Origin: an uncultured Candidatus Saccharibacteria bacterium
GTDB taxonomy: Bacteria; Patescibacteriota; Minisyncoccia; 2-02-FULL-40-12; GWA2-44-9
Assembly (NCBI GenBank): GCA_964444955.1
Contig: CAYUJB010000002.1
Span: 972-64,971, forward strand
Direction of reading: 5' to 3'
Length of the DNA stretch: 64,000 bases
Below the pieces are notes generated by a model that saw nothing but the letters and a program-made list of their open reading frames with translations, was not told the origin of the DNA and did no database searches. The position numbers and the translations under genes were made by a program. The first letter of the stretch is position 1. Every line of letters begins with the position of its first letter. Below, one piece after another: positions 2,499-62,405 of this stretch.

Positions 2499-3787
2499 TG
2501 CTTGCACTACTCAAAATACAACTCCGTTGGCTCGCGCAGGCATATGTGCGTCGCTATCGCCCTATCATCGTTGCTGTTACCGGAAACGTGGGCAAGACTA
2601 CCACGAAAGAAGCGATCGCCGCGGTATTGGGCGCAAAGCACAGCGTCCGAAGTAGCGGCGGGAATTTGAACAATGATCTTGGCATACCATTGACGATCAT
2701 TGGTGAGTATTCGGATCGGTACTATCAGAGCGGGGGAACTGCATCATTCTGGCTCCATGTGCTCTGGCATGGTTTTGTCGGACTCTTCGCACATCGAAAC
2801 GAGTATCCTGAGGTTCTCGTCTTGGAGTTTGGTGCCGATAGGCCGGGGGATATCAAGCGTCTCACGGGTGACTATCCACCTCACGTTGCCGTCGTGACGC
2901 ACGTCGGGGACACGCCAGTGCATGTCGAGTTTTTTGCATCACCACGTGAGCTCGCTCGGGAGAAGGCGCATATTATTCAGCGCCTCACCGCGTCAGATGT
3001 TGCCGTGTTGGGTTCGGATGATCTCTCGGTGCTCGAAATGCGATCAGCGACCAAGGGTCGTGTGCGAACGTTTGGTTTGGGCGAGGGCGCGGATGTGCGC
3101 GTCACCAATTTTAGAACTCGAAGTGAAGGTGCGCGACCCTTAGGCGTTGCTTTTGATATTTCGGTAGACGGTAATACCATGCCAGTCGCAATCTCAGGAG
3201 CACTGGGTGTGGGTCTTGCCAATGCTGCCGCCGCTGCCGTCGCAGTGGGGACGTCATTGGGCGTGGGGTTGGCTGACGCCGTTCAGGCACTCGCGCGCAT
3301 GACACCGCCTGCTGGGAGGCTGCGTATTATTGAAGGTATTCGCAACACGATTGTTATCGATGACACGTACAATGCGTCGCCTGCTGCGATGCACGCGGCA
3401 CTCGACGCGGTGGGTGCACTGTCCGCGCCGCGCCGCGTGCTCATTCTCGGAGATATGCGTGAGTTGGGTGCCTATAGCGTGCAAGCGCATCAGGCCATTG
3501 GCAATCTCGCCGCCGAAGTTGCGCAGGTGCTGGTGTGTGTTGGTGAGAGCGGGCGATTCATTGCTGACGCCGCAGCAAATCAGATGCCTGCAGAGCACAT
3601 CCATCGAGCACCGGATGCACACGAGGCCGCCGCGATGGTGCAACAGCTCATTCGTCAGGGCGATCTCATTTTGGTGAAGGGATCACAAGGTATGCGCATG
3701 GAACGAATTGTGCAAGAAATTATGGCCCGCCCCGAGCAGGCCACTAAACTCCTCGTACGCCAAAGTGCACGATGGCTGGAGAAATAA
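2495..3787 (+). CDS. murF: UDP-N-acetylmuramoyl-tripeptide--D-alanyl-D-alanine ligase MurF
   Basis: Mur-ligase P-loop VTGNVGKTTTKE and the MurF hallmark IDDTYNASPAAM. Confidence 0.9.
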   Translation: MMLALLKIQLRWLAQAYVRRYRPIIVAVTGNVGKTTTKEAIAAVLGAKHSVRSSGGNLNNDLGIPLTIIGEYSDRYYQSGGTASFWLHVLWHGFVGLFAHRNEYPEVLVLEFGADRPGDIKRLTGDYPPHVAVVTHVGDTPVHVEFFASPRELAREKAHIIQRLTASDVAVLGSDDLSVLEMRSATKGRVRTFGLGEGADVRVTNFRTRSEGARPLGVAFDISVDGNTMPVAISGALGVGLANAAAAAVAVGTSLGVGLADAVQALARMTPPAGRLRIIEGIRNTIVIDDTYNASPAAMHAALDAVGALSAPRRVLILGDMRELGAYSVQAHQAIGNLAAEVAQVLVCVGESGRFIADAAANQMPAEHIHRAPDAHEAAAMVQQLIRQGDLILVKGSQGMRMERIVQEIMARPEQATKLLVRQSARWLEK

Positions 3788-4450: not shown

Positions 4451-4768
4451 ATGCCGACATTCGCTGTAATCAAAACTGGAGGGAAGCAATACATTGTCCG
4501 CAAGGGCGATGTGGTGACCATCGAAAAGCTGGTTCACGATGGCAAAAAGGTCTCATTCGACCAGGTGCTTTTGATTGCCGATGAGAAGAAAGCAACTATC
4601 GGACAGCCGGTTATCAAAGGAGCCACCGTCTCTGCTTCGGTGCTCGAGGATGGCAAGGGCGAGAAAAAGATGGTCTTTCGCTACAAGGCCAAGACCCGCT
4701 CGAAGAAGAAGAAAGGTCATCGCCAGCCCTTCACGAAGGTGAAAATCGACTCCATCTCTGCCAAGTAA
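4451..4768 (+). CDS. rplU: 50S ribosomal protein L21
   Basis: MPTFAVIKTGGKQYIVRKGDVV... is the canonical L21 N-terminus. Own promoter TTGACA-17-TAGGAT at 4409-4437. Confidence 0.9.
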   Translation: MPTFAVIKTGGKQYIVRKGDVVTIEKLVHDGKKVSFDQVLLIADEKKATIGQPVIKGATVSASVLEDGKGEKKMVFRYKAKTRSKKKKGHRQPFTKVKIDSISAK

Positions 4769-4769
4769 A

Positions 4770-4795
4770 AAGAGCCCATCCGGGCTCTTTTGGTT
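4770..4795 (+). terminator. Rho-independent terminator after rplU
   Basis: GAGCCCATCCGGGCTC hairpin followed by TTTTGG. Confidence 0.7.
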
Positions 4796-4796
4796 A

Positions 4797-5283
4797 TTGA
4801 TGTTCCGCTCCCTTTCCCACTCTCCGACTCGTCAGTTCGCACAATGAGTGACAGCCTGTCCGCATCACAGGCGAAGCATCCGAATCTCCGCATTCCATCC
4901 CGCCTCTGGCGGGATGTCGGTGCTCCGGTCATGCGGATGCTCGCCGATGCGGACTACGACTGTCATCTGATATGTACTCACCCGCTGTACTATGACTCGC
5001 TTGGAGAGTGGGGAAGAGTCGCGTCGCATACACCCACCAACAAGTCGATGCGCATTCTTTTGGCTTAGGTATATCCTTTTTGAGCGACGGGTACCCGTGA
5101 CATCAATTGGCATAGTATGCGGGTTCGCACATATACAGCGACATTCGTTATCCAGGTCGCAGATAGCCGCATGACCGGAGCATAAAGCCGTAGGCGCCTG
5201 CGGAGATTCGGATATCGTATACCTGGATAGAATGTCGTTCGAATGCGAACTGACAAGTGAAGTTATGGGTAAACGGAGCGAGA
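4797..5283. repeat. Noncoding structured/repeat element, copy 1 (paralog of 60048-60430); candidate large ncRNA or MITE-like element
   Basis: No credible ORF. Three nested perfect long-range inverted pairs: 4831-4841/5244-5254 (11 bp), 4878-4892/5199-5213 (15 bp) and 4921-4936/5167-5182 (16 bp). Local hairpin CCCGCC-TCT-GGCGGG. Blocks 4871-4896 and 4915-4944 are 100% identical to the reverse complement of 60336-60361 and 60279-60308. Confidence 0.6.
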
Positions 5284-5883
5284 TTACTTCCTACTCTCCA
5301 GTGCATGCCGGAGCGTTATCTCGTCGGCGTATTCTAGGTGTGTGCCAGTGGCGAGGCCGCGGGCGAGACGGGTGGTGCGGATGCCGGGCGCTTTGTGAAA
5401 CAGGTCGCGCAGGTACATCGCCGTCATCTCGCCACTGGAGGTAGGATTGGTGGCGAGTACCAGCTCCACCGTGCCGGCCTGCTGAGCGATACGGTCCACG
5501 CGTTCGGCCAGCTCGCGAATACGAAGATGTTCGGGCCCAACGTTGTTGACTGGTGCTATCGAGCCGCCTAAGACATGGTAGAGGCCTTTCCAGAGACCTG
5601 AGCGCTCGACTGATTGGAGATCGGTGATCATCTCGACCACCATAATTGCCTTGGGGTCGCGTCGAGTGTCTCGGCACACAGTACAGAGTGTATCGTCGGA
5701 GACATTGAAGCACTCGGGACACTTGCGAACACGAGTCTTGAGCTCGCGAATGGCATTGCCGAGATCATCAAGTTCAGACTGGGGCTTATCTAAGAGTGCG
5801 AGCACCATACGGGAAGCAGCCCGCGGTCCAACACCGGGCAATTTTTGAAGGAGCTTGGCGATTGCAGCGAATACAGGGTCCAT
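5284..5883 (-). CDS. recR: Recombination protein RecR
   Basis: HhH motif, C4 zinc finger CPECFNVSDDTLCTVC and a Toprim region, all typical of RecR. Confidence 0.9.
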   Translation of the reverse strand: MDPVFAAIAKLLQKLPGVGPRAASRMVLALLDKPQSELDDLGNAIRELKTRVRKCPECFNVSDDTLCTVCRDTRRDPKAIMVVEMITDLQSVERSGLWKGLYHVLGGSIAPVNNVGPEHLRIRELAERVDRIAQQAGTVELVLATNPTSSGEMTAMYLRDLFHKAPGIRTTRLARGLATGTHLEYADEITLRHALESRK

Positions 5884-12149: not shown

Positions 12150-13228
12150 ACACTCTGACGAAATATCTTGTCACTGTGCTTAGCATTGTTGCAGTGATTT
12201 GGTTGGTTGAGCGGTTCGTGCCAGCGACGACTTCGCTCGGTGAACGGGTAGCCAGTGATATCCCTGCATCTTCTGTGCAGCCAGCTCTCGAGAAAGAAGG
12301 GAAATATCCACGCGCTCAGGAATTCGTAAAGCCGGGGGAATTCATCAATGCTGAACCTTTCACGCTCGCCTCGCTGATTGGCAAAAAAGTGATTATTGTC
12401 GATTTCTGGACATACTCGTGCATTAATTGCCAGCGCACCCAACCCTACCTCAACGCATGGTATGAGAAATACAAAGACCAAGGGTTGGAAATTGTGGGCG
12501 TACATACCCCTGAATTCGATTTTGAAAAAGTAGCTGATAATGTGCGCGCTGCAGTGAAGCGGGAGGGGATTGTGTATCCGGTGGTGCAGGACAACGAATT
12601 CGGTACGTGGCGAGCATACCAAAACCAGTATTGGCCTCACAAATACCTTATCGATACCGATGGCTATATTGTCTACGATCAAGTCGGCGAAGGTGGTTAT
12701 GAAGAATTTGAAACACACGTTCAGCGGGCGCTCGCCGAACATATGGCTCGCGCGGGTGCTGGTGGCGAGGTGGCGAGTGGAACAGTGCGACCCGGTGATA
12801 TACAAGCCGTTGATTTTAGCAAGATTAAAACACCCGAAATATACCTTGGTGTATTTCGGAATGCACAGTATCTGGGTAATGGGACACCCAGCATCACGGG
12901 CACGCAAACGCTGAGTATGCCCGCTTCAAACACGCAGAAAAAGAACCTCGTGTACCTTGGTGGAACGTGGGAATTCTCTGATCAAGCGGTTCGCTGTGTA
13001 CGTGATTGCGTAGTGCGACTCGCGTACTCCGCACGGCAGGCCAATATTGTTGCAGGTTCACCAACCTCGCAGAGCATACGCGTCCGGCTTGATGGCAAGG
13101 ACGTGCAATCCGTCACCGTTCGAGCAGATACGCTCTATCACGTGATTGACCAGAATACCTACGGTGAACACACGCTCGAGCTTACGGTGCCAACCGGGTT
13201 ATCGTTATTCACCTTTACCTTTAGTTAA
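12146..13228 (+). CDS. resA: TlpA/ResA-like thiol:disulfide oxidoreductase (thioredoxin fold, CxxC) with a C-terminal extension
   Basis: VIIVDFWTYSCINCQRTQPYLNAWYEKYKDQGLEIVGVHTPEFDFEK is classic for TlpA/ResA. N-terminal TM anchor. Confidence 0.75.
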   Translation: MNTLTKYLVTVLSIVAVIWLVERFVPATTSLGERVASDIPASSVQPALEKEGKYPRAQEFVKPGEFINAEPFTLASLIGKKVIIVDFWTYSCINCQRTQPYLNAWYEKYKDQGLEIVGVHTPEFDFEKVADNVRAAVKREGIVYPVVQDNEFGTWRAYQNQYWPHKYLIDTDGYIVYDQVGEGGYEEFETHVQRALAEHMARAGAGGEVASGTVRPGDIQAVDFSKIKTPEIYLGVFRNAQYLGNGTPSITGTQTLSMPASNTQKKNLVYLGGTWEFSDQAVRCVRDCVVRLAYSARQANIVAGSPTSQSIRVRLDGKDVQSVTVRADTLYHVIDQNTYGEHTLELTVPTGLSLFTFTFS

Positions 13229-13232
13229 AAAA

Positions 13233-13266
13233 TAAACCCCCGAGATTGCTCTCAGGGGTGGGGCGG
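13233..13266. terminator. Hairpin terminator, copy 1 of a duplicated 30-nt terminator sequence
   Basis: AAACCCCCGAGATTGCTCTCAGGGGTGGGG with an A/T run. A near-identical copy lies at 13878-13912. Confidence 0.6.
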
Positions 13267-13267
13267 T

Positions 13268-13807
13268 CTACTCGCGCTCGAAGTGAAGCTCGGGGCAAGC
13301 CACTCCATCAACGACGCGAACATTCTTGAAGTCGCGGCTCATGAGCTCAATCAGCTGATTGGTGGCAAATTCGCCACGAATGAAGAACGGAATCGGTTGT
13401 ACGAATTTGCGCTCAGTAGGTCCCGTTGCCGCGCTCACCTTCATCTTTTCCACGAATTTTATGACATTCGCTTCTTCGATGACGCGGGAATCGTCGTTCA
13501 TCACCCCACCCTTTCGACTGAGAACACTGCCGAGCAGCATGTAGAGCGCAATAGCGCTCTCTCGGCGGAGTGCTATTTCTGTTTGGTGGAAGCCATCTTG
13601 GAAGCGAACGTCGCCACTGAAGCGCGCTTTGCCTCCTTTAGTTCTGCATTTTTTCGCAAGTTCTGAATCTTCTGGATGGTTGATGTCGATTACGATATCG
13701 GATTTTACTCGACTCGCATGTTCCATAACCGCAAACAATCGACCATCAGCGAATGTAAATGCAGGCCCCTCCAAGTCGATGGGAATTCTGGTCTTCTTTT
13801 TGGACAC
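13268..13807 (-). CDS. Hypothetical protein (179 aa); the C-terminal domain is paralogous to the protein at 13915-14181
   Basis: C-terminus IPFFIRGEFATNQLIELMSRDFKNVRVVDGVACPELHFERE resembles IPFTLQGNDAAIQRAMFFLADEFSDFQVGEHCEVPELRFRRK. Confidence 0.5.
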   Translation of the reverse strand: MSKKKTRIPIDLEGPAFTFADGRLFAVMEHASRVKSDIVIDINHPEDSELAKKCRTKGGKARFSGDVRFQDGFHQTEIALRRESAIALYMLLGSVLSRKGGVMNDDSRVIEEANVIKFVEKMKVSAATGPTERKFVQPIPFFIRGEFATNQLIELMSRDFKNVRVVDGVACPELHFERE

Positions 13808-13877: not shown

Positions 13878-13912
13878 AAAAAACAAACCCCCGAGATTGC
13901 TCTCGGGGGTGG
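13878..13912. terminator. Hairpin terminator, copy 2 of the duplicated terminator sequence
   Basis: AAACCCCCGAGATTGCTCTCGGGGGTGGGG. Confidence 0.6.
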
Positions 13913-13914
13913 GG

Positions 13915-29512: not shown

Positions 29513-30259
29513 ATGGAGTATGCGTCTCTCGAAGAATTTCGCGACCGTGCCGGCTATGTCATCGATGACATTTGGTATGCACGTGTTACGTCCATCGTAT
29601 CTATAAAGTCTAAACCGGCTCTTTTGCGATACTACGGTGGCATGAAGAGTTTTAAGGCAGCAGACGATGCCAAAGAGGCCAGTGCACGCGAGGGTACGAT
29701 GGTGCACGAAGCTGTCGCCGCTATTGCCGCTGGTCGCCACGACGTGGCGGTTGATCCCCTGGTTCGTCCCTCGGTGGACGCCTTCACAGAGTTTTTACGA
29801 AATAACGATGTGCAGCCGCTTCTTATCGAAGAGCGGGTATCGCATCCACATCACGGGTATGCTGGTACCGTTGATATGGTTGCAAAAATTAACGGTGTTG
29901 TTGGCGTTTTGGACATCAAAACGAGTCGGCGCATCTACCGTGATTTTGGGCTCCAAACAGCCGCCTATGTTCACGCAGTGGCTCAGCGATCTGATATCAT
30001 GACCCCAACCACGAGTTGGGTGCTGAGACTCGATCAATGCCGAACCTGCGAGCTGTGCGGCGTCTCACTGCGTACCAAGGGCGGCACGTTTCGGGTAAGC
30101 GCCGGAGGCAGAGGCTGCACGCATCGGTGGCTCCCCATGCATGGCCTTTTTGAATTTGAGGAGCTGCCTGATACTGAACACAACTTCCAGGCATTCCTTG
30201 CGTCAAAGACGCTTTGGGAATGGGAGCATCGCGATTTCATCGCTCAGATTCCTCGATAG
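29513..30259 (+). CDS. PD-(D/E)XK family nuclease (RecB/Cas4-like) with C-terminal Cys cluster
   Basis: GTVDMV...VLDIKTS (D...DxK) core. C-terminal CRTCELCG...C may be an Fe-S or Zn site. Start set at MEYASL. Confidence 0.7.
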   Translation: MEYASLEEFRDRAGYVIDDIWYARVTSIVSIKSKPALLRYYGGMKSFKAADDAKEASAREGTMVHEAVAAIAAGRHDVAVDPLVRPSVDAFTEFLRNNDVQPLLIEERVSHPHHGYAGTVDMVAKINGVVGVLDIKTSRRIYRDFGLQTAAYVHAVAQRSDIMTPTTSWVLRLDQCRTCELCGVSLRTKGGTFRVSAGGRGCTHRWLPMHGLFEFEELPDTEHNFQAFLASKTLWEWEHRDFIAQIPR

Positions 30260-30265
30260 CATCGC

Positions 30266-30700
30266 CTATGGATTACAGTTGCCAGCAAGCGTATAGCCCG
30301 CAGCTTGGGCATCCTGGGCGGTGGGGAACCAGATACGATTCGCTTCCTTTATGCGCTGTCCACTTGAGCACCAGCTAAAATGATATTTCTTGCTCGAAGA
30401 CGTTTTTGACGCCACAACTCGGATATCGTCGTGCGGTGGCCTCTGAGTTCCCGAAGCACTTCCCTGCCCCGGCACGGGCGTATGCGAAACAATGGAGTCT
30501 CGTACCTTCAGGATAGCCGACGATTGTGCGGGATTGCCCCCACGTTGGGCGTGGAGGAGGCCGAGATTGTATGTAGACCAGGATATCAACGATAGCACCA
30601 AAAGGCGCCATAGGGCCTCCTGGCGTCGTTTGACGAACTCCCCTATTCTTGCTATGATGGTCTTCACGTGTGACAGTGACATCCCCACTGTTATACTCAT
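30266..30700 (-). CDS. Membrane-anchored protein with C-terminal Ada-like Zn-binding domain
   Basis: N-terminal TM helix. The C-terminus YHFSWCSSGQRIKEANRIWFPTAQDAQAAGYTLAGNC resembles the Ada N-terminal zinc-binding fold. Confidence 0.5.
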   Translation of the reverse strand: MSITVGMSLSHVKTIIARIGEFVKRRQEALWRLLVLSLISWSTYNLGLLHAQRGGNPAQSSAILKVRDSIVSHTPVPGQGSASGTQRPPHDDIRVVASKTSSSKKYHFSWCSSGQRIKEANRIWFPTAQDAQAAGYTLAGNCNP

Positions 30701-51317: not shown

Positions 51318-54314
51318 TCATCGCTTTTCCATCAACGATCGTAGTGGACAGTAGGCGCAATCGGAATCTCCGCATCGTGCGTTCCAAAAAGCGAGCGATC
51401 GGATTTCTTCGGCAACACGTATAATTTCTGATTCCAGCGTGGCAACCGATTCCGGCGTGATATCGAATTTCTCGCGATGATACTTTCCGCGAAGATCCGG
51501 CTCGACAAAATCGATAACGCCTTCGCGCATACGGTATTTTCCGTCTTGGTAGCGATCTAGTAGAAGCTTATAGAAGGTAAGTTGCCGCAGGTAATTGCCG
51601 TCGCCGTCTTTCACATCGCCTGTGATTTGATTGCGCGATTTTGGCTTGCCTGTTTTGTAATCGACCACGAGTACCGCACCCGTGGCATCGAGGAGTTCGA
51701 CTTTGTCGATTTTACCGTTGATGAGAATGCCATTAGCAAGCTCCACTGCAGGAACTTTGAGCTGGTTGAAAATGTTGACATGCCACTCGGTGTGGTACTG
51801 ATCATAGTATCCCTGAAGCGCGGTGCGCCCGCGCGTAAGCGCCGCATCGAGATCTTGTTGCTGGAGCGGCTGATGTCGAATAAATGTCTCAAACAACTCG
51901 ACCAATGATTCGCGAGTTCCACGCTGTCCCTCTTTGAATCGATTGAAATACTCCTCTAGGGCGCGATCGACAGCATTTCCATACATCAGCGCGAAGGCAG
52001 GTGCTTCGGGTATGCGAATCAAATTAGTATAGAAGTATCGCCACGGACAGGTGAGATAATTATTGAGCGCAGTAACCGAGAGTCCGTGGTGATTGAAAAG
52101 TTCATTGAGATACTCGCGATCAGTCGCCTGCGGTATTTGCGCTGGCGCGGGTGCGTATCGCAGCGAGCTTTCGCGAAGCCAAGACTCCTCGAGCGCAGCA
52201 GTGTCGACGCGCAGCTGCACATCGGGACGTATATCCAAAAGGTAGGCAGTGGGAAGCTGCTCATTGCCGCGCTGATCACGCAGCGAATACGCGATCACGA
52301 CCTCTCGGCGCGCGCGGGTCAGCGCAACATAAAAAAGATTGCGTTCGTCGTCATCGAACGCGTCCGCTGCAAGCGTTGATTGCGTCTTCAGAAAGAGCGC
52401 CGGAGGAAGCTTGAGCAGTTCCCGTCGCTGTCGCTTCCCCCATCGCGCATCGATGGCATCGATGATGTAGACGTAATCAAATTCAAGCCCCTTGCTCTTG
52501 TGCGCGGTCATGACGCGTACACGTCCTGGCAACGGCATGCCGGTTACCGTCGATAGCGCGATGCCATGACTTCGCAAAAAATCGAGATGATCTGTAAATG
52601 CTGCAAGAGTGAGCGTGCGTTCGCGCTGCACACGCGAACGAATCATGTCGTATAGTGTGTGGAGACGATCGAGTGCATCAAGTGCATTCTCGTCACGCAT
52701 CATCTCCGCTAATAACCCCGATTCGCGCACGATCGCCTCAAGCGCAGCGGCTGCGGCAGGCTGTTGCGTTGCGGTTGCCCAGGAGCGAAGGAGTGCGGAT
52801 ACTTCCTGAAGACGCAGTGCACCATCGATCCCCGCTTCGTGCATCAAGGCAGTAGACCGTATCACGTCATAGGGGTTGCGCCCCGTTTTACAAAACACTG
52901 TGAGCTTGTAGACATCGAGCGGGTCGACTCCCAACGCGGGTGCGTGCAGTGCAATCAACAGTGGCCCCGCACTACCGTAGTTGCGGAGTGCATCGAGTAT
53001 GCGCACCAATTGATGGAGATACGGATCGGAAAAGATATCTTGCTGGGTGGAAAGCGTGAATGGAATTGCAAGCTTACGTAAAAACTCAGATACCGCAACT
53101 GCATCGCTGTTGTCGCGCGCAAGCACCGCAATTGACTCGGGACGCGCGCCCGCAGCAAGTCGATCCTGAATGTGTCGCGCCACACTCCAGTACTGAACGT
53201 CGGGCGAGCTGAGTGCCATTACGCTAACAGGAGTATCTGCGTGGCCGGATCGCGCTGCCAACGCCCCACCAGCACTTGAACGCACCCCTTCGGCAGCGGT
53301 AAGGATGAGCTGGCTGGAACGATAGTTGTCTTCGAGCGTGATCAGCTTCACTGAGGGGTAGAGTTTTTGAAAGTAGTGAAAATTCTCCAGTGACGCTCCT
53401 TGAAAACGATAGATGGCTTGCTTCTCATCGCCGACCACAAAGAGATTGGGAGTTTCCCAAAAACGCGCCAAGAGTTCTACGATGCGATTTTGAGTATTGT
53501 TGGTATCTTGGTGCTCATCAACCAGAATGTACTGATGCTGCTCTTGTAATATGAGCCGGAGCGTCTCGTCGGTTTCGAGAACACGCGCCACCTCCATAAT
53601 CATGTCGTTGTAATCAAACAGACGTTGCGCGCGCAGAGTAGATTGATACTGCGTATACACGAGTGCGAGCTCTCGGAGCTTTTTGGCCTGCTTCAGACGC
53701 TCTTCGTACACACCCTTTACCTTTCCTTTATGCGGACCTTTTTCATGCTCGAGATCCTCGGCGCTCATGACAGCACGCTCCTCGCGTTGGGCATAGGCAA
53801 CAAGCGCATCGGCGGTGACACCCTCGCGTTTGAGCGTGGATACGGCGTGAATAAGAACCCTGAGATAGAGATCCGGAGCGTTGACCGGCCGCAAGTATTC
53901 GAAAAGGTTTGCGGGATCATTGATACGCTCTTGGAGCATCACCGCTTGATCGTCATCTGAAATAAGTGTCGCGCCCGCCAGTGCACCCAGCGACTCAGGG
54001 TAGTCTCGGATAATGCCATTGCAAAACGAATGAAACGTCGTAATCATGACGCGATACGCGTCGGTGCCAATGATGGCAGCCAACCGAGCGCGCATCTCGG
54101 AAGCGCCCGATTCGGTAAATGTAAGGGCTAAAATCGCCTCGGGAGGCGTATCGGTCGCCGTGAGAATTTTGGCGATACGAAGGGTGAGAATATTGGTCTT
54201 ACCCGTGCCTGGGCCAGCAACCACCATGACAGGGCCGTCGATGGCATCGACCGCCTCTTTTTGGCGAGGATTGAGTGCCGCGTAGAGTCTAGTAAATTCG
54301 TTCGTCATTTTCAC
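51318..54314 (-). CDS. UvrD/PcrA-like superfamily-1 helicase fused to C-terminal PD-(D/E)XK (RecB-type) nuclease domain (AddA-like)
   Basis: Walker A GPGTGKTN and UvrD motifs. C-terminus VLVVDYKTGKPKS (DYK nuclease motif) plus CGDSDCAYCP Cys cluster. Confidence 0.8.
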   Translation of the reverse strand: MKMTNEFTRLYAALNPRQKEAVDAIDGPVMVVAGPGTGKTNILTLRIAKILTATDTPPEAILALTFTESGASEMRARLAAIIGTDAYRVMITTFHSFCNGIIRDYPESLGALAGATLISDDDQAVMLQERINDPANLFEYLRPVNAPDLYLRVLIHAVSTLKREGVTADALVAYAQREERAVMSAEDLEHEKGPHKGKVKGVYEERLKQAKKLRELALVYTQYQSTLRAQRLFDYNDMIMEVARVLETDETLRLILQEQHQYILVDEHQDTNNTQNRIVELLARFWETPNLFVVGDEKQAIYRFQGASLENFHYFQKLYPSVKLITLEDNYRSSQLILTAAEGVRSSAGGALAARSGHADTPVSVMALSSPDVQYWSVARHIQDRLAAGARPESIAVLARDNSDAVAVSEFLRKLAIPFTLSTQQDIFSDPYLHQLVRILDALRNYGSAGPLLIALHAPALGVDPLDVYKLTVFCKTGRNPYDVIRSTALMHEAGIDGALRLQEVSALLRSWATATQQPAAAAALEAIVRESGLLAEMMRDENALDALDRLHTLYDMIRSRVQRERTLTLAAFTDHLDFLRSHGIALSTVTGMPLPGRVRVMTAHKSKGLEFDYVYIIDAIDARWGKRQRRELLKLPPALFLKTQSTLAADAFDDDERNLFYVALTRARREVVIAYSLRDQRGNEQLPTAYLLDIRPDVQLRVDTAALEESWLRESSLRYAPAPAQIPQATDREYLNELFNHHGLSVTALNNYLTCPWRYFYTNLIRIPEAPAFALMYGNAVDRALEEYFNRFKEGQRGTRESLVELFETFIRHQPLQQQDLDAALTRGRTALQGYYDQYHTEWHVNIFNQLKVPAVELANGILINGKIDKVELLDATGAVLVVDYKTGKPKSRNQITGDVKDGDGNYLRQLTFYKLLLDRYQDGKYRMREGVIDFVEPDLRGKYHREKFDITPESVATLESEIIRVAEEIRSLAFWNARCGDSDCAYCPLRSLMEKR

Positions 54315-58854: not shown

Positions 58855-58927
58855 GGGGACTATGGTGAAGCGGTTATCACAGCGCTCTGTGGCAGCGCGG
58901 TCACGGGTTCGATTCCCGTTAGTCCCC
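58855..58927 (+). tRNA. tRNA-His (anticodon GTG) with encoded G-1 pairing to C73
   Basis: Manual cloverleaf: G-1 plus acceptor GGGACTA/TAGTCCC, U8, D-stem GTGA/TCAC, anticodon stem GCGCT/AGCGC, loop CTGTGGC, 4-nt variable loop, T-arm ACGGG-TTCGATT-CCCGT, discriminator C. Confidence 0.8.
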
Positions 58928-58929
58928 CA

Positions 58930-59135
58930 CTCAAAAGAAAAACCTTCGCGAATGTGAGGGTTTTTCTTTTGCTCGGACTAACGGGAATCGAACTGGAGAG
59001 GGGTCGGGAGAGGTGCGCCTCTCCCGTGGTGGAAGTACTGAAACCGCATGGTTTCAGAAAGTGAGGGCGAGAATAGCCGAAGGCAATCGAGCCCGACACG
59101 CGTGAGATAGCGAAGCGTCCCGTTAGTCCCCCATG
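58930..59135. repeat. tRNA-His 3'-end-derived repeat segment: inverted 19-nt copy (58975-58993) and 16-nt direct copy (59118-59133) of the tRNA T-arm/acceptor flank a hairpin-rich insert of about 190 bp
   Basis: The direct repeat TCCCGTTAGTCCCCCA occurs at 58914-58929 and 59118-59133. GGACTAACGGGAATCGAAC is the reverse complement of tRNA positions 58907-58925. The interior has perfect hairpins CTGAAACC-GCAT-GGTTTCAG and CGGGAGAGG-TGCG-CCTCTCCCG. Confidence 0.5.
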
Positions 59136-59198: not shown

Positions 59199-60047
59199 CT
59201 ACTTTCCCAGCCAACGGGTGAAGATGCCTGTCGAGAGTAGACGACCACTCCGTTGCTGGAGACACAGCTGTCCGGCTTCCAGCTTCCCCGCGCGACCCTT
59301 AAGTGTGTCTTCGAGGAGATTGTGGATGGCGAGCTCAGAGGTATTGGTGGCGTACGCGTTGATGATGAGAAATTTTGCCTGCGGTGATAGGAGCGTCACA
59401 CAATCGCGCACCAACGCTGGCATTTGTTCGTTGAACTTCCAAATCTTTCCGGTCGGTGAATGTCCAAACGCGGGTGGGTCCATCACAATTCCCTCGTACT
59501 GAGCCCCCCGCTTCACTTCATTTTTTACAAACTTTGCAGCATCTTCGAGCATCCAACGGATAGAATCGACGGGAAGCTTGTTGAGATCTTGGTTTTCTTT
59601 CGCCCATCCAATCGCAGGTCGTGATGCGTCGACATGCGTGACGAATGAACCACGAATCGTCAGCCATGCCGTAGCCGCGCCTGTGTACGCAAAGAGATTG
59701 AGCACACGTGGTTTCTCCAGTCCCGCGAGCGCATCAGACATGAGCTTCCAGTGGGCTGCCTGCTCGGGGAAAACACCTGTGTGCTTAAAGTTCATAGGAC
59801 GTACTCGTAGCTTCATATCGTGAAACGCCATGTCCCACGATTCAGGAAGGGTTGTGCGCATCTGCCAGGCATCATCGCGAAAAATAGCATCTGCACCATC
59901 CCAGATTTCTTTGGGTTCACTGCGCGCCCAAATGGTCTGCGGATCGGGTCGCGCCAATACAAACTCGCCCCATCGCTCGAGGCGATACCCATCGCCCGAA
60001 TCGAGGAGCTGAAAATCGGAAAACTCTTTCGCACCATCCATGTACAT
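59199..60047 (-). CDS. Class I SAM-dependent rRNA (m5C) methyltransferase, RlmI/YccW-like
   Basis: LNLFAYTGAATAWL (SAM motif I) and DPPAFG motifs. The upstream 68 codons of the six-frame ORF fall in the repeat element and are Arg/Cys-rich, so the start is set at MYMDGAKE. Confidence 0.75.
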   Translation of the reverse strand: MYMDGAKEFSDFQLLDSGDGYRLERWGEFVLARPDPQTIWARSEPKEIWDGADAIFRDDAWQMRTTLPESWDMAFHDMKLRVRPMNFKHTGVFPEQAAHWKLMSDALAGLEKPRVLNLFAYTGAATAWLTIRGSFVTHVDASRPAIGWAKENQDLNKLPVDSIRWMLEDAAKFVKNEVKRGAQYEGIVMDPPAFGHSPTGKIWKFNEQMPALVRDCVTLLSPQAKFLIINAYATNTSELAIHNLLEDTLKGRAGKLEAGQLCLQQRSGRLLSTGIFTRWLGK

Positions 60048-60430
60048 AGCCCCTATACTACACGAGTACTTCCACCGACGCCACACTTCCAAATTCCGGC
60101 CGCTTCGGCACCCGCATCGGTCTCGCACACGCCTGCCTGCCGGCAGGCAGGGATGATGCCTTCGCCGATATCGGGTGCCTGCGCTGACATGGACCCGCTT
60201 GAGCGAGTCTTCCTCGTTTCCCAGCGAGCCATAGCATGCGACTTCGCACATGATAAGTCGCAGTCGTCGCCCGTAGCAGCGAGCATCCGCATGACCGGAG
60301 CACCGACAACGGCTAAGAAGGCCATCTTAGCCGTTGGAATGCGGAGATTCGGATGCTTCGCTTGCTGCGGGCAGACTGCAGCACCAATGCGAAGTGGCGA
60401 GTCGGGGAACGGGGAAGAGAGCGAGAGGCT
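60048..60430. repeat. Noncoding structured/repeat element, copy 2 (inverted, shorter paralog of 4797-5283)
   Basis: 60279-60308 and 60336-60361 are exact reverse complements of 4915-4944 and 4871-4896. The flanking sequence is about 70% identical to copy 1 read on the opposite strand. The variable hairpin ACGGCTAAG-N8-CTTAGCCGT replaces CCCGCC-TCT-GGCGGG. Confidence 0.6.
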
Positions 60431-62405
60431 AGTTTTCTTGGATCCCTAGCGCTTTCAGGAATGGCGCGTCGGATGGTTCGCGTCCTAAGAATGAACGGAC
60501 GAGATCAAGCGCGTCGCGCTGCGCGCCGGGTGCTAGCACCTGAGTCCTATAATCGGCGCCAACCTCGGGGCTCAGTGGATCGGGTGCAAATCGTGTGTAC
60601 ATATCCAGTGCATACACCTTGCTCCACAGGTAGCTGTAATAGCCGGCGTCATAATCGCTCATATGTCCCCACCCCGCCGGAAAGAGCGATGACTCGGGTA
60701 TCTCGATGGTTTCGAATTCGAGCTTCATGGCCCGATCTTGATCAGCGAGACCCTGCGCATCAACCGGTGCGTCGGTGGGTTGCGAGTGTATGCGCAAATC
60801 ATACAGCGCGCGAGACGCTTGCTGTAGGTAGTGCGTAGCATCCATATGGTGGCGCGCTGCAATAAGCGACTTCTGCATCTCATCGGGCATCGGAGCACCG
60901 GTTTGATAATGCGCGCTTAGACGAGCGAGCACGCGCGGATCCCACGCCCATTCTTCAAACAGCTGACTCAACGCCTCCACAAAATCGAGTGGCACACCAA
61001 AACCATTCTGACGTTGCCACTTTCCCGATGAAAGAAGCGCATGCATCACATGTCCAAATTCATGAAGCAGCGTCTCCACCTCATCATGCGCCAGAAGCGA
61101 CGGTGACTCAGATGTGTTCTTGGGAAAGTTGCATACGAGAGTTACAAATCCCTCCACTTGCTCACCATCACGTGTTGCGCGACCCAAAATCACAGGAAAG
61201 GCCGCCGCATGCCCATATTTTCCGCTACGTGGATAGAGATCGAGCGCGAAATGCCCACAATTGCGCTCACCATCAGTGACCTGGTAGAGCACCGCATCCT
61301 CATGCCAAAGCTTCGCGCCCTCCACTCGCGTAAATCGCACTCCCAGCACCTCCTGGTACATCCGGAGCATCCCTTCCACGACGTGTTGGAGGGGGAAATA
61401 CTCTTTCACCTTCTCCTCGTCGACACCAAAGCGCTCCCGCAAAAGCTTGTAGCTGAAGTACGCCATCTCATGGAAATGAATGGGTGCGCGCGTCGCAATC
61501 CCGCGATGCTTCTTCTTGGTCTCTATAAGCTCGATGAGCTCTGCACGTGCGGCGGGCGACAGTTTTCGCATGATGCGTTCAATAAATTCGGTTGCTGCGA
61601 TGCCGGTTTTGACCATGCGTGGCTCCGCTACATACTCAGCATGCGTCGCGTATCCCAAGAGTCGTGCGTTTGCCTGCCGCAACTCAATCATGCGCGCGAG
61701 GCGCTCGAGATTTTCGCGCCCTCCTTTGAGGAGATTTTTGGTGGCCAATTCGCGACGCGCTGCATCGTCGTCAGCCATGCGCAAAAACGGAAACAGGTCT
61801 GGATACTCGAGTGCCACACGATACTTTCCCCCCTCGCGTTTCAATCCCGCGATGTATCGCTCGGGAAGTCCGGCGAGCTGCTCACGCGTGACGACAATAC
61901 TATCCTCCCACTCGTTGATTGCGGACTCGAATTTCGTCTCCAATTGCTTGAGCTCAGTGATATTTGTCTTAAGTTGCGCAAAATCTGAATCCGAAAGAGC
62001 AAACCCCATTCGCCGCATGTCACGAAGGGTGTCTCGCATGAGCTTCTCGTCTGGACCATCCAAATGTTCACCACGCTCACTGAAGGCCTGCACTACATCC
62101 CACAGCCGTCGATCATACTCCATCGCGATGTTGGCCTCTTCAATCCGATGCACCGCAGCTTGTGCTGCCTCACGCACAACGCTATCGGGATGAACCGCCA
62201 AGAGCAAAGCAAGCTGCTGCTGCACATCAGAAAGAGCGTCTCCAGCATACTCAAGTGCCGCCATCGTATTTTCAAATGTGCGCTCCGCGGCCGAAATCGC
62301 AATGACAGCGTCCAGCGCAGAACGCTTGGCGGCTAACAGCGAAGTTACCGCGCCATCAAGTTCGCTCGGGGTGCGCCCAATCCAGGCTATATCGAGAGTG
62401 ATCAT
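60429..62405 (-). CDS. pepF: M3-family oligoendopeptidase (PepF/Dcp-like)
   Basis: HEFGHVMH zinc motif and a downstream E. 658 aa. Confidence 0.85.
   Translation of the reverse strand: MITLDIAWIGRTPSELDGAVTSLLAAKRSALDAVIAISAAERTFENTMAALEYAGDALSDVQQQLALLLAVHPDSVVREAAQAAVHRIEEANIAMEYDRRLWDVVQAFSERGEHLDGPDEKLMRDTLRDMRRMGFALSDSDFAQLKTNITELKQLETKFESAINEWEDSIVVTREQLAGLPERYIAGLKREGGKYRVALEYPDLFPFLRMADDDAARRELATKNLLKGGRENLERLARMIELRQANARLLGYATHAEYVAEPRMVKTGIAATEFIERIMRKLSPAARAELIELIETKKKHRGIATRAPIHFHEMAYFSYKLLRERFGVDEEKVKEYFPLQHVVEGMLRMYQEVLGVRFTRVEGAKLWHEDAVLYQVTDGERNCGHFALDLYPRSGKYGHAAAFPVILGRATRDGEQVEGFVTLVCNFPKNTSESPSLLAHDEVETLLHEFGHVMHALLSSGKWQRQNGFGVPLDFVEALSQLFEEWAWDPRVLARLSAHYQTGAPMPDEMQKSLIAARHHMDATHYLQQASRALYDLRIHSQPTDAPVDAQGLADQDRAMKLEFETIEIPESSLFPAGWGHMSDYDAGYYSYLWSKVYALDMYTRFAPDPLSPEVGADYRTQVLAPGAQRDALDLVRSFLGREPSDAPFLKALGIQEN

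Follow-up and report, generated by a model that had tools for sequence, protein, structure and literature searches.

ERIC (or IRU) elements are enterobacterial repeats of 127 bp, reportedly described by Hulton in 1991 and by Wilson and Sharp in 2006. Like the repeat family analysed here, they are imperfect-palindrome intergenic repeats with a highly conserved centre, occurring in either orientation and at low to moderate copy number. Filled and empty sites are found between relatives, longer variants arise by insertion at fixed internal positions, and a transposase is known for neither family. However, the two share no sequence similarity, and the present unit is ~215 nt long, has a conserved asymmetric internal loop near its tip and carries extra 3' modules (linker, B and C). 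The REP/REPIN-RAYT system also consists of non-autonomous hairpin repeats, located in the spacers behind gene 3' ends. REPs arranged as inverted doublets form long hairpins, as does the first of the two loci discussed below (copy 1), and long vertical persistence is combined with sequence conservation. REPs are, however, 20-40 nt long, have a 5' end of conserved GTAG type, number in the tens to hundreds and have a flanked RAYT gene as their diagnostic feature, whereas the unit of ~215 nt described here occurs in 1-8 or more copies and no RAYT was seen near the units on inspection by eye.

The Correia elements of Neisseria, which are MITEs, and the BOX and RUP elements of Streptococcus resemble the present family in size, in being non-coding, in their paired ends and in their intergenic insertion, and BOX elements are likewise modular (A-B-C). 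Elements of these kinds are co-transcribed and able to affect messages. Unlike in MITEs, no target-site duplication was found here, the ends are subfamily-specific, the conserved part is internal and no parent IS was found. Integron attC sites are comparable in forming a folded single-strand hairpin that combines a conserved core with unpaired bases and a terminal structure that varies, located directly behind the stop codon of a co-oriented gene. They differ in that the present units are solitary, with no tandem cassette arrays and no intI, and have two to four times the length of attC; the R''/R' core (RYYYAAC/GTTRRRY) was not seen in the unit ends when these were read by eye. Several large RNAs in Rfam (OLE, GOLLD, HEARO/omega RNA, ROOL, raiA and 6S) are also long, strongly covarying and non-coding, but no Rfam 15 model matches the present unit, which is multi-copy and polymorphic in position. 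As to an IS200/IS605-type PATE or a TnpB/IscB guide RNA, no tnpA, tnpB or iscB was seen in the flanks, which were inspected mostly by eye, and HEARO gave no match.

The genomes of Patescibacteria are very small and streamlined, and the unit is present in several copies per genome of roughly 1 Mb. To our knowledge, neither interspersed repeats nor structured-RNA families have been reported from these bacteria. Literature searches returned no description of this repeat family; targeted ones gave nothing relevant on CPR repeats and structured RNAs, and the best-ranked results of a broader one were not pertinent either.

Repeat units in the window

The window, i.e. the whole stretch of 64,000 nucleotides that was analysed, holds two loci of the family, copy 1 and a locus at 60 kb between the genes for an M3 peptidase and an RlmI-like methyltransferase (Table 1). 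An earlier note had described the latter as an inverted and truncated copy of the former. Homology in opposite orientation is evident, as MAFFT aligns 60040-60450 (minus strand) with 4780-5300 (plus strand), and BLAST gives 72.5% identity over 229 nt (60203-60423 versus 4806-5022). The two perfectly conserved blocks reported in that note, a 27-mer (in copy 1 at 4871-4897) and a 30-mer (4915-4944), are indeed 100% identical between the loci. Both are found at just these two places in the window, and 100 shuffles gave 0 matches to either. The hairpin separating them had been described as substituted, and this holds too: copy 1 has ATCCCGCC-TCT-GGCGGGAT where the 60-kb locus has the sequence given in Table 1, the two differing while self-complementarity is kept.

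The unit was defined from an alignment of three sequences, namely the 60-kb copy, the left arm of copy 1 and the right arm of copy 1 in reverse complement; an nhmmer profile of 208 positions was built from 21 copies. This profile finds exactly three units in the window, two in copy 1 and one at 60 kb, and no further ones with E up to 10; a weak extra copy at 51351-51374 was accordingly rejected as a unit. At 60 kb profile positions 2-201 of 208 are matched (60208-60419). With this coverage and a closing stem of its own the 60-kb unit is therefore complete, which contradicts its description as truncated. Folding of this single sequence gave z = -7.8 to -8.3. The right-arm inverted blocks of copy 1 are absent at 60 kb, as had been observed, but they are not part of one longer element: they belong to a second, inverted unit. 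Copy 1, previously regarded as a single long repeat, consists of two units (c1L and c1R) lying tail to tail, and this arrangement accounts for its 480-nt hairpin (z = -9.9 for the fold of the whole locus). The two share only 56% identity and fall in different subgroups, each nearer to units from other genomes. For this reason an origin of copy 1 by inverted duplication in place was rejected; its site is also empty in a relative with a 92% identical RecR, which was weighed against such a duplication.

The insertion at 60 kb continues beyond unit A with a linker and a second domain (60075-60201). This domain is absent from copy 1, which has neither part. The earlier claim that paralogy to copy 1 extends up to the gene boundary could not be upheld, since it ends near 60202 and the last stretch before the methyltransferase gene is native upstream sequence.

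Table 1 Features of the 60-kb insertion, its flanking genes and copy 1
Feature	Position	Strand	Basis or remark
Whole insertion: unit A, linker and domain 2	60075-60428	-	Between the M3 peptidase stop codon and the native methyltransferase upstream region
Unit A, complete rod-shaped unit of ~215 nt	60202-60420	-	nhmmer envelope, E = 1e-42
Conserved block A, GCGAAGCATCCGAATCTCCGCATTCCA (27-mer)	60335-60361	-	TCCGAATCTCCGC invariant in 35 units
Variable terminal hairpin, ACGGCTAAGA-TGGCCT-TCTTAGCCGT	60309-60334	-	Different self-complementary sequence in each copy
Conserved block B, TGTCGGTGCTCCGGTCATGCGGATGCTCGC (30-mer)	60279-60308	-	GCTCCGGTCATGCGG invariant or nearly so in 35 units
Linker motif, GGGTCCATGTCAGCGCAG	60179-60196	-	Fits the family consensus GTCC(G/A)T..CAGCGCAG
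Domain 2 hairpin, GCACCCGATATCGG...CCGATGCGGGTGC	60107-60178	-	Folding
Perfect palindrome of 20 nt at the tip of domain 2, CCTGCCTGCCGGCAGGCAGG	60132-60151	n/a
Native methyltransferase upstream region with -10-like TAGTAT, outside the repeat	60048-60074	-	Alignment with relatives
RlmI-like SAM-dependent methyltransferase gene, ATG at 60047 (MYMDGAKE)	59199-60047	-	Homologue lengths; Pfam Methyltrans_SAM match
M3 peptidase gene	60429-62405		Stop codon 60429-60431
Copy 1, left unit (c1L)	4809-5024	+	nhmmer E = 2e-40; 68% identical to the 60202-60420 unit
Copy 1, right unit (c1R), inverted	5084-5277	-	nhmmer E = 2e-33

Boundaries and flanking genes

From the sequence CTCGTGTAG(T/G)ATAG..ATGTACATGG, which is common to the window and locus L003 (sampled loci are referred to by L numbers), we infer the right boundary of the 60-kb insertion. 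An alignment of the native upstream region pairs CTCGTGTAGTATAGGGGCT-ATG of the window with CTCGTGTAGGATAGAGAC-ATG of L003 and GTGGTAGGATGCTTCT-ATG of L052 and L053. Both the ATG-TAC-ATG start of the methyltransferase gene and the preceding CTCGTGTAG(T/G)ATAG are kept in relatives. The best 120 methyltransferase homologues are 276-306 aa long and cover ~80% (the C-terminal part) of the 350-aa ORF 59199-60251. They do not align across the 68 codons upstream. A protein of 100% identity is recorded at 280 aa. The source organism is a patescibacterium; named homologues belong to Paceibacterota, Yanofskybacteria and the Patescibacteria group. Because of these homologue lengths the start at 60047, as the earlier note had it, is accepted, and the 350-aa ORF is by this comparison an over-extended call. 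In the window (60048-60070), L003 (1020-1041) and L052/L053 (~2980-3000) the methyltransferase start codon is preceded, at a distance of 8-13 nt, by a conserved TAG(T/G)AT motif. It may be a -10 box of a leaderless or short-leader methyltransferase message, with a putative promoter function.

The amino acid strings VGAPVMRMLA and MRRFGCFAC were found in the ORFs over the element from which they had been reported. The ORFs over the 60-kb element gave no Pfam match, and indels in the family alignment break any reading frame across the unit. The unit is therefore non-coding, in agreement with the earlier view that these ORFs are artefacts in a non-coding paralogue. This explains the spurious Arg/Cys-rich ORFs and the over-extended gene starts in these MAGs.

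Distribution of the family

Collections of genomes, metagenomes and viral contigs were searched with the pattern CCGAATCTCCGC-N(10-40)-GCTCCGGTCATGC. Matches were found at 17 loci in 5 Patescibacteria MAGs, with up to 8 hits per genome, and at 29 metagenome loci. Pattern matches and profile matches lacking the exact pattern together yielded 35 distinct units. All five named genomes with units are Patescibacteria MAGs, and the family has so far been seen only in one clade of this group of tiny groundwater bacteria (Paceibacteria/Yanofskybacteria-like MAGs). Neither the exact two-block pattern nor block B alone had any match in the viral contigs; a single viral match to block A alone was located in GC-rich, apparently coding sequence with no block B nearby and was judged to be due to chance. 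The element had no BLAST match in collections of phages and plasmids. In the window and 14 related loci, tRNAs alone exceed the gathering thresholds of Rfam 15; when E values up to 10 were admitted, the highest scores at the two window loci were 14-18 bits versus thresholds of 35-380.

Units from the same genome group as subfamilies. The 32 other units outside the window are all single and of the same length, the paired arrangement occurring only in copy 1, and no split or half units were found in ~400 kb of sampled loci. Units of both orientations occur, without exception in short spacers between genes, and many lie 6-40 nt from a stop codon; in 21 of ~36 units the 5' end lies at most ~40 nt from the stop codon of a co-oriented gene. 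The orientation bias with respect to neighbouring genes is weak (23 of 36). Between co-directional genes ~11 units are co-oriented and ~7 antisense, according to a hand tally to which the 60-kb unit was added by hand. TAG stops are enriched upstream of the units (15 of 21 versus a baseline of 40%), which is only suggestive as some of these loci are orthologous. Inspection of the ~400 kb of sampled loci, mostly by eye and in a few cases via Pfam, showed no transposase, RAYT, TnpB or integrase beside the units. The neighbours are mostly housekeeping genes, as judged by eye.

A PaaX-like gene (Pfam PaaX_M, the Cas2-like central domain) adjoins a unit in four loci from at least three genomes (L010 2459-3085, L012 1386-1952, L049 266-871 and L040 1159-1572). 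The orientation of the unit relative to this gene varies, and the window has no such gene.

Structure and covariation

Every unit folds into the same closed rod of ~215 nt with five helices. The rod is closed by pairing of a C-rich 5' end with a G-rich 3' end, and three more helices lead to a core near the tip. The closing stem measures 15-27 bp and its end sequences vary by subfamily (e.g. CCGCCACCATGCTCC, CCGCCACGGTATCCC and CCCTTTCCCACTCTCC). The core is an asymmetric internal-loop region, CAUCCG-AAUCU-CCG...CGG-UCAUG-CGGAUG, with columns that are invariant or nearly so; it is ~100% conserved across subfamilies that are otherwise 45-70% identical. The terminal hairpin (3-14 bp) differs by lineage. 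Some minimal forms are C(UUCG)G, and the tips in L041 and L045 are perfect palindromes with no loop.

Among the 35 sequences 83.9% of the cells are paired, versus 70% in shuffles and 33-42% in slid-partner controls. Changes on both sides were seen for 46 of the 60 pairs and in 294 cells (113 in shuffles). The covariation score was 0.350 versus 0.152 in shuffles, of which 0 in 500 reached it, and 0.06-0.12 in slid controls. The unit has a conserved secondary structure with compensatory changes, the criterion for a generic structured non-coding RNA.

Evidence on whether the units act as RNA or as DNA, and on which strand, is mixed. Mismatches in the helices of unit A are near equal in kind (103 G.U versus 90 A.C). 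In 30 of 35 copies unit A gains ~9 kcal/mol in stability when folded as its reverse complement (Wilcoxon p = 2e-6), and the z-scores of that strand are stronger as well. Modules B and C, described below, fold 15-22 kcal/mol better as given (-101 vs -80 and -76 vs -59 kcal/mol) and contain many G.U pairs in that orientation. Tips that are palindromic and loop-less point to events at the DNA level. Scans for promoters and terminators inside both window elements found nothing.

Linker, modules B and C and a 20-nt palindrome

The consensus linker motif (Table 1) is located 13-45 nt past the closing stem of unit A in L010, L017, L022, L026, L027, L033, L040, L041, L046 and L049. A module B of ~210 nt follows unit A in L010, L017, L026, L040 and L049 (2521-2745 in L017, 700-926 in L026, 1236-1450 in L049 and 840-1055 in L040), and a module C of ~120 nt in L009 (1535-1668), L033 (8290-8425 and 2105-2240), L027 (8975-9115) and L019 (1690-1810). 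Neither module has an Rfam match. Domain 2 of the 60-kb insertion appears, from a weak similarity noted by eye (GCATCAT...GTGTG.GCGAG), to resemble a short module B. In L037 a 169-aa ORF is present between the unit and module C.

The palindrome capping domain 2 is also inserted, in L037 as a 16-nt variant, at the point GCG^GATG of block B in units of L024, L037 and L046, three units that belong to different subfamilies. Outside the window it was recorded in L024 (624-643 and 3414-3433), L037 (9851-9870), L046 (5033-5052) and the viral loci L058-L092. The exact 20-mer occurs in 35 stretches of viral contigs with a G+C content of 0.38 to 0.68, while a rough estimate of chance matches in the viral collection is below one. 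Some of the viral copies are flanked by direct repeats of 7-14 nt. In L082 the palindrome is located within the variable loop of a tRNA-Met; ARAGORN calls the gene with it, and a normal 72-nt tRNA once it is removed. No description of the string was found in the literature. It looks like an independently inserted sequence. It may also be a library or other technical artefact, but against this stand the clean insertions and their recurrence across independent data sets. The palindrome, shared with so many unrelated viral contigs, is possibly a separate phenomenon, worth a study of its own.

Gain and retention among relatives

The peptidase-methyltransferase junction exists in three states in close relatives: with the genes adjacent, with a gene of 251 aa, and with the repeat element. 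The junction is 17-36 nt long in L005 and L003, and in L052 (2182-2937) and L053 (2184-2939) it holds the 251-aa gene, which has a weak PRAI-like match. No units are present at this junction in these four loci, and tblastn found no remnant of the 251-aa gene in the window. At the other locus the rplU-recR spacer is 18-33 nt in L054-L056 (RecR identity 86-92%) and contains nothing but a shared bidirectional terminator hairpin; copy 1 of the window is placed between this hairpin and the recR stop codon. Both window loci are thus empty in the nearest relatives and are therefore recent insertions. The reverse case is provided by L045, which carries a unit and a 133-aa ORF where the window has a 14-nt spacer (30258-30273). 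The 270-kb contig carrying L003 has units elsewhere, the L045 unit among them. The family gives a marker for strain-level insertion polymorphism. No target-site duplication was seen by eye at either window junction when compared with the empty sites in L003, L005 and L054-L056, and none common to the flanks of H41-type units.

Units are also present at orthologous sites, in L017/L026 and in L008/L028, with pairing kept through compensatory changes. In the pair L017/L026 the flanking coding sequence is 84-86% identical (63-69% at third codon positions). Unit A is 66% identical in this pair, with stems compensated and the core unchanged, and module B, which is 89% identical, exceeds the flanking genes in conservation.

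L028 has a nucleotidyltransferase gene and a second small gene right after the unit (4460-5164), where the orthologous region of L008 (3258-3425) measures only ~190 nt. This pair is a possible MNT-HEPN toxin-antitoxin system, Pfam support being for the nucleotidyltransferase alone. Spacers with units may be hot spots for gene insertion.

Mobile repeat or host-maintained RNA

Core conservation resembling that of rRNA, compensation in the stems and recent gains beside essential genes point to an active mobile element or a functional RNA, either of which would be new for this group. With about even confidence we regard 60075-60428 (minus strand) as a recent, full-length, non-coding member of a new structured repeat family of the ERIC/REPIN/MITE-like type. 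The element would be a non-autonomous hairpin that is copied or moved as DNA by a trans-acting factor, and the target of this factor would be the invariant core, folded and single-stranded, the stems needing only to pair and being free in sequence. As it is located on the strand of the peptidase and methyltransferase genes, the element may in addition be co-transcribed as a stable RNA rod. In favour of a mobile repeat are the size of the family (35 units, 1-8 or more per genome), its strong structure and covariation, the filled and empty sites found in both directions among relatives, the mixed orientation (~11 versus ~7), the grouping of same-genome units as subfamilies and the failure to find a conserved ORF or, in the window elements, an internal promoter or terminator. 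The balance of G.U and A.C in the helices (103 vs 90), the loop-less palindromic tips and the 20-nt palindrome at one point of block B in three units are likewise consistent with it. However, no gene for a mobilising enzyme was seen beside the units in the ~400 kb sampled, no target-site duplication was found at the window junctions or in the H41-type flanks, and the closing stem is not conserved in sequence, unlike the inverted repeats usually bound by transposases. Core conservation of ~100% among subfamilies otherwise 45-70% identical also counts against it, as does the folding preference, which is for the reverse complement in unit A (30 of 35 copies) but for the given strand in modules B and C. 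The compensated stems in L017/L026 and L008/L028, together with a module B identity of 89% versus 63-69% at third codon positions, are better explained by selection in place than by a repeat that is purely selfish and decaying. These data, along with the invariant core and the covariation, lead to the main rival, a cis-acting structured RNA that the host maintains and that would serve the flanking transcripts as a module in the 3'-UTR or between cistrons, which is possible though rather unlikely. Its rod and loop would bind a conserved protein or be processed, e.g. by RNase III, and so set the stability or processing of the message, with new copies arising only occasionally, by recombination. 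The start of 21 of ~36 units at most ~40 nt past a co-oriented stop codon, the G.U-rich modules B and C that favour the given orientation and the C(UUCG)G of some minimal terminal hairpins agree with such a role. On the other hand, with 11 co-oriented and 7 antisense units the element is often on the non-transcribed strand of the operon, and unit A is symmetric in G.U and A.C and folds better as its reverse complement. Furthermore, copy 1 is missing from the three closest RecR relatives and the 60-kb copy from four relatives, nothing having visibly taken their place, and perfect palindromic tips without a loop are not a product of selection at the RNA level. A REPIN-like system, both mobile and vertically maintained, would reconcile the two views.

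Four other explanations were weighed. The greater stability of the unit A reverse complement (~9 kcal/mol in 30 of 35 copies, p = 2e-6, with stronger z-scores) and the conserved linker motif between unit A and modules B and C could indicate a family of independent trans-acting small RNA genes with promoters of their own, perhaps with transcription running outward from the linker along the reverse complement of unit A. This is improbable, as neither a sigma-70-like promoter nor an intrinsic terminator was found inside the window elements, the spacing between unit and linker varies (13-45 nt) and the copy number differs among related genomes (1-8 or more). The view implied by the earlier note, of a degenerate and decaying truncated paralogue of one long palindromic repeat without structure of its own, draws on the absence at 60 kb of the inverted blocks seen at 5150-5215 in copy 1. 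The full-length profile match at 60 kb, the closing stem present there (z = -7.8), the single and equally long state of all 32 units elsewhere with pairing confined to copy 1, and the 56% identity between the copy 1 halves, which belong to different subgroups, make it very improbable. Open frames on both strands would allow the region to be coding, as an N-terminal extension of the methyltransferase (the 350-aa ORF) or as a small protein; with homologues of 276-306 aa that cover only the C-terminal 80% of this ORF, no Pfam match, frame-shifting indels and absence of the region in relatives, the chance of this is close to nil. It can also be speculated, with considerable doubt, that the unit, modules B and C and the palindrome are parts of an undescribed Patescibacteria system, in which folded nucleic-acid modules, each with an invariant core for recognition, would be inserted, swapped and selected via a dedicated enzyme, either of the host or selfish. 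The main hint for this is that the same palindrome is found at one point of the core in units of three subfamilies and in a tRNA variable loop. If true, the system would be new either as a class of functional structured RNA or as a mechanism of hairpin-directed DNA insertion.

Other repeats in the window

Two further repeats of the window were recorded. The 19 nt at the 3' end of the tRNA-His gene (58907-58925) recur, perfectly matched but inverted, at 58975-58993, and the two form a long hairpin directly behind the tRNA (58907-58993). This hairpin is probably native, its surroundings being conserved in L003. A direct repeat of 37 nt (AAAAAA.AAACCCCCGAGATTGCTCTC.GGGGTGGGG), 95% identical between 13227-13263 and 13878-13914, is located on both sides of a 179-aa ORF (13268-13807) and contains a terminator-type hairpin.
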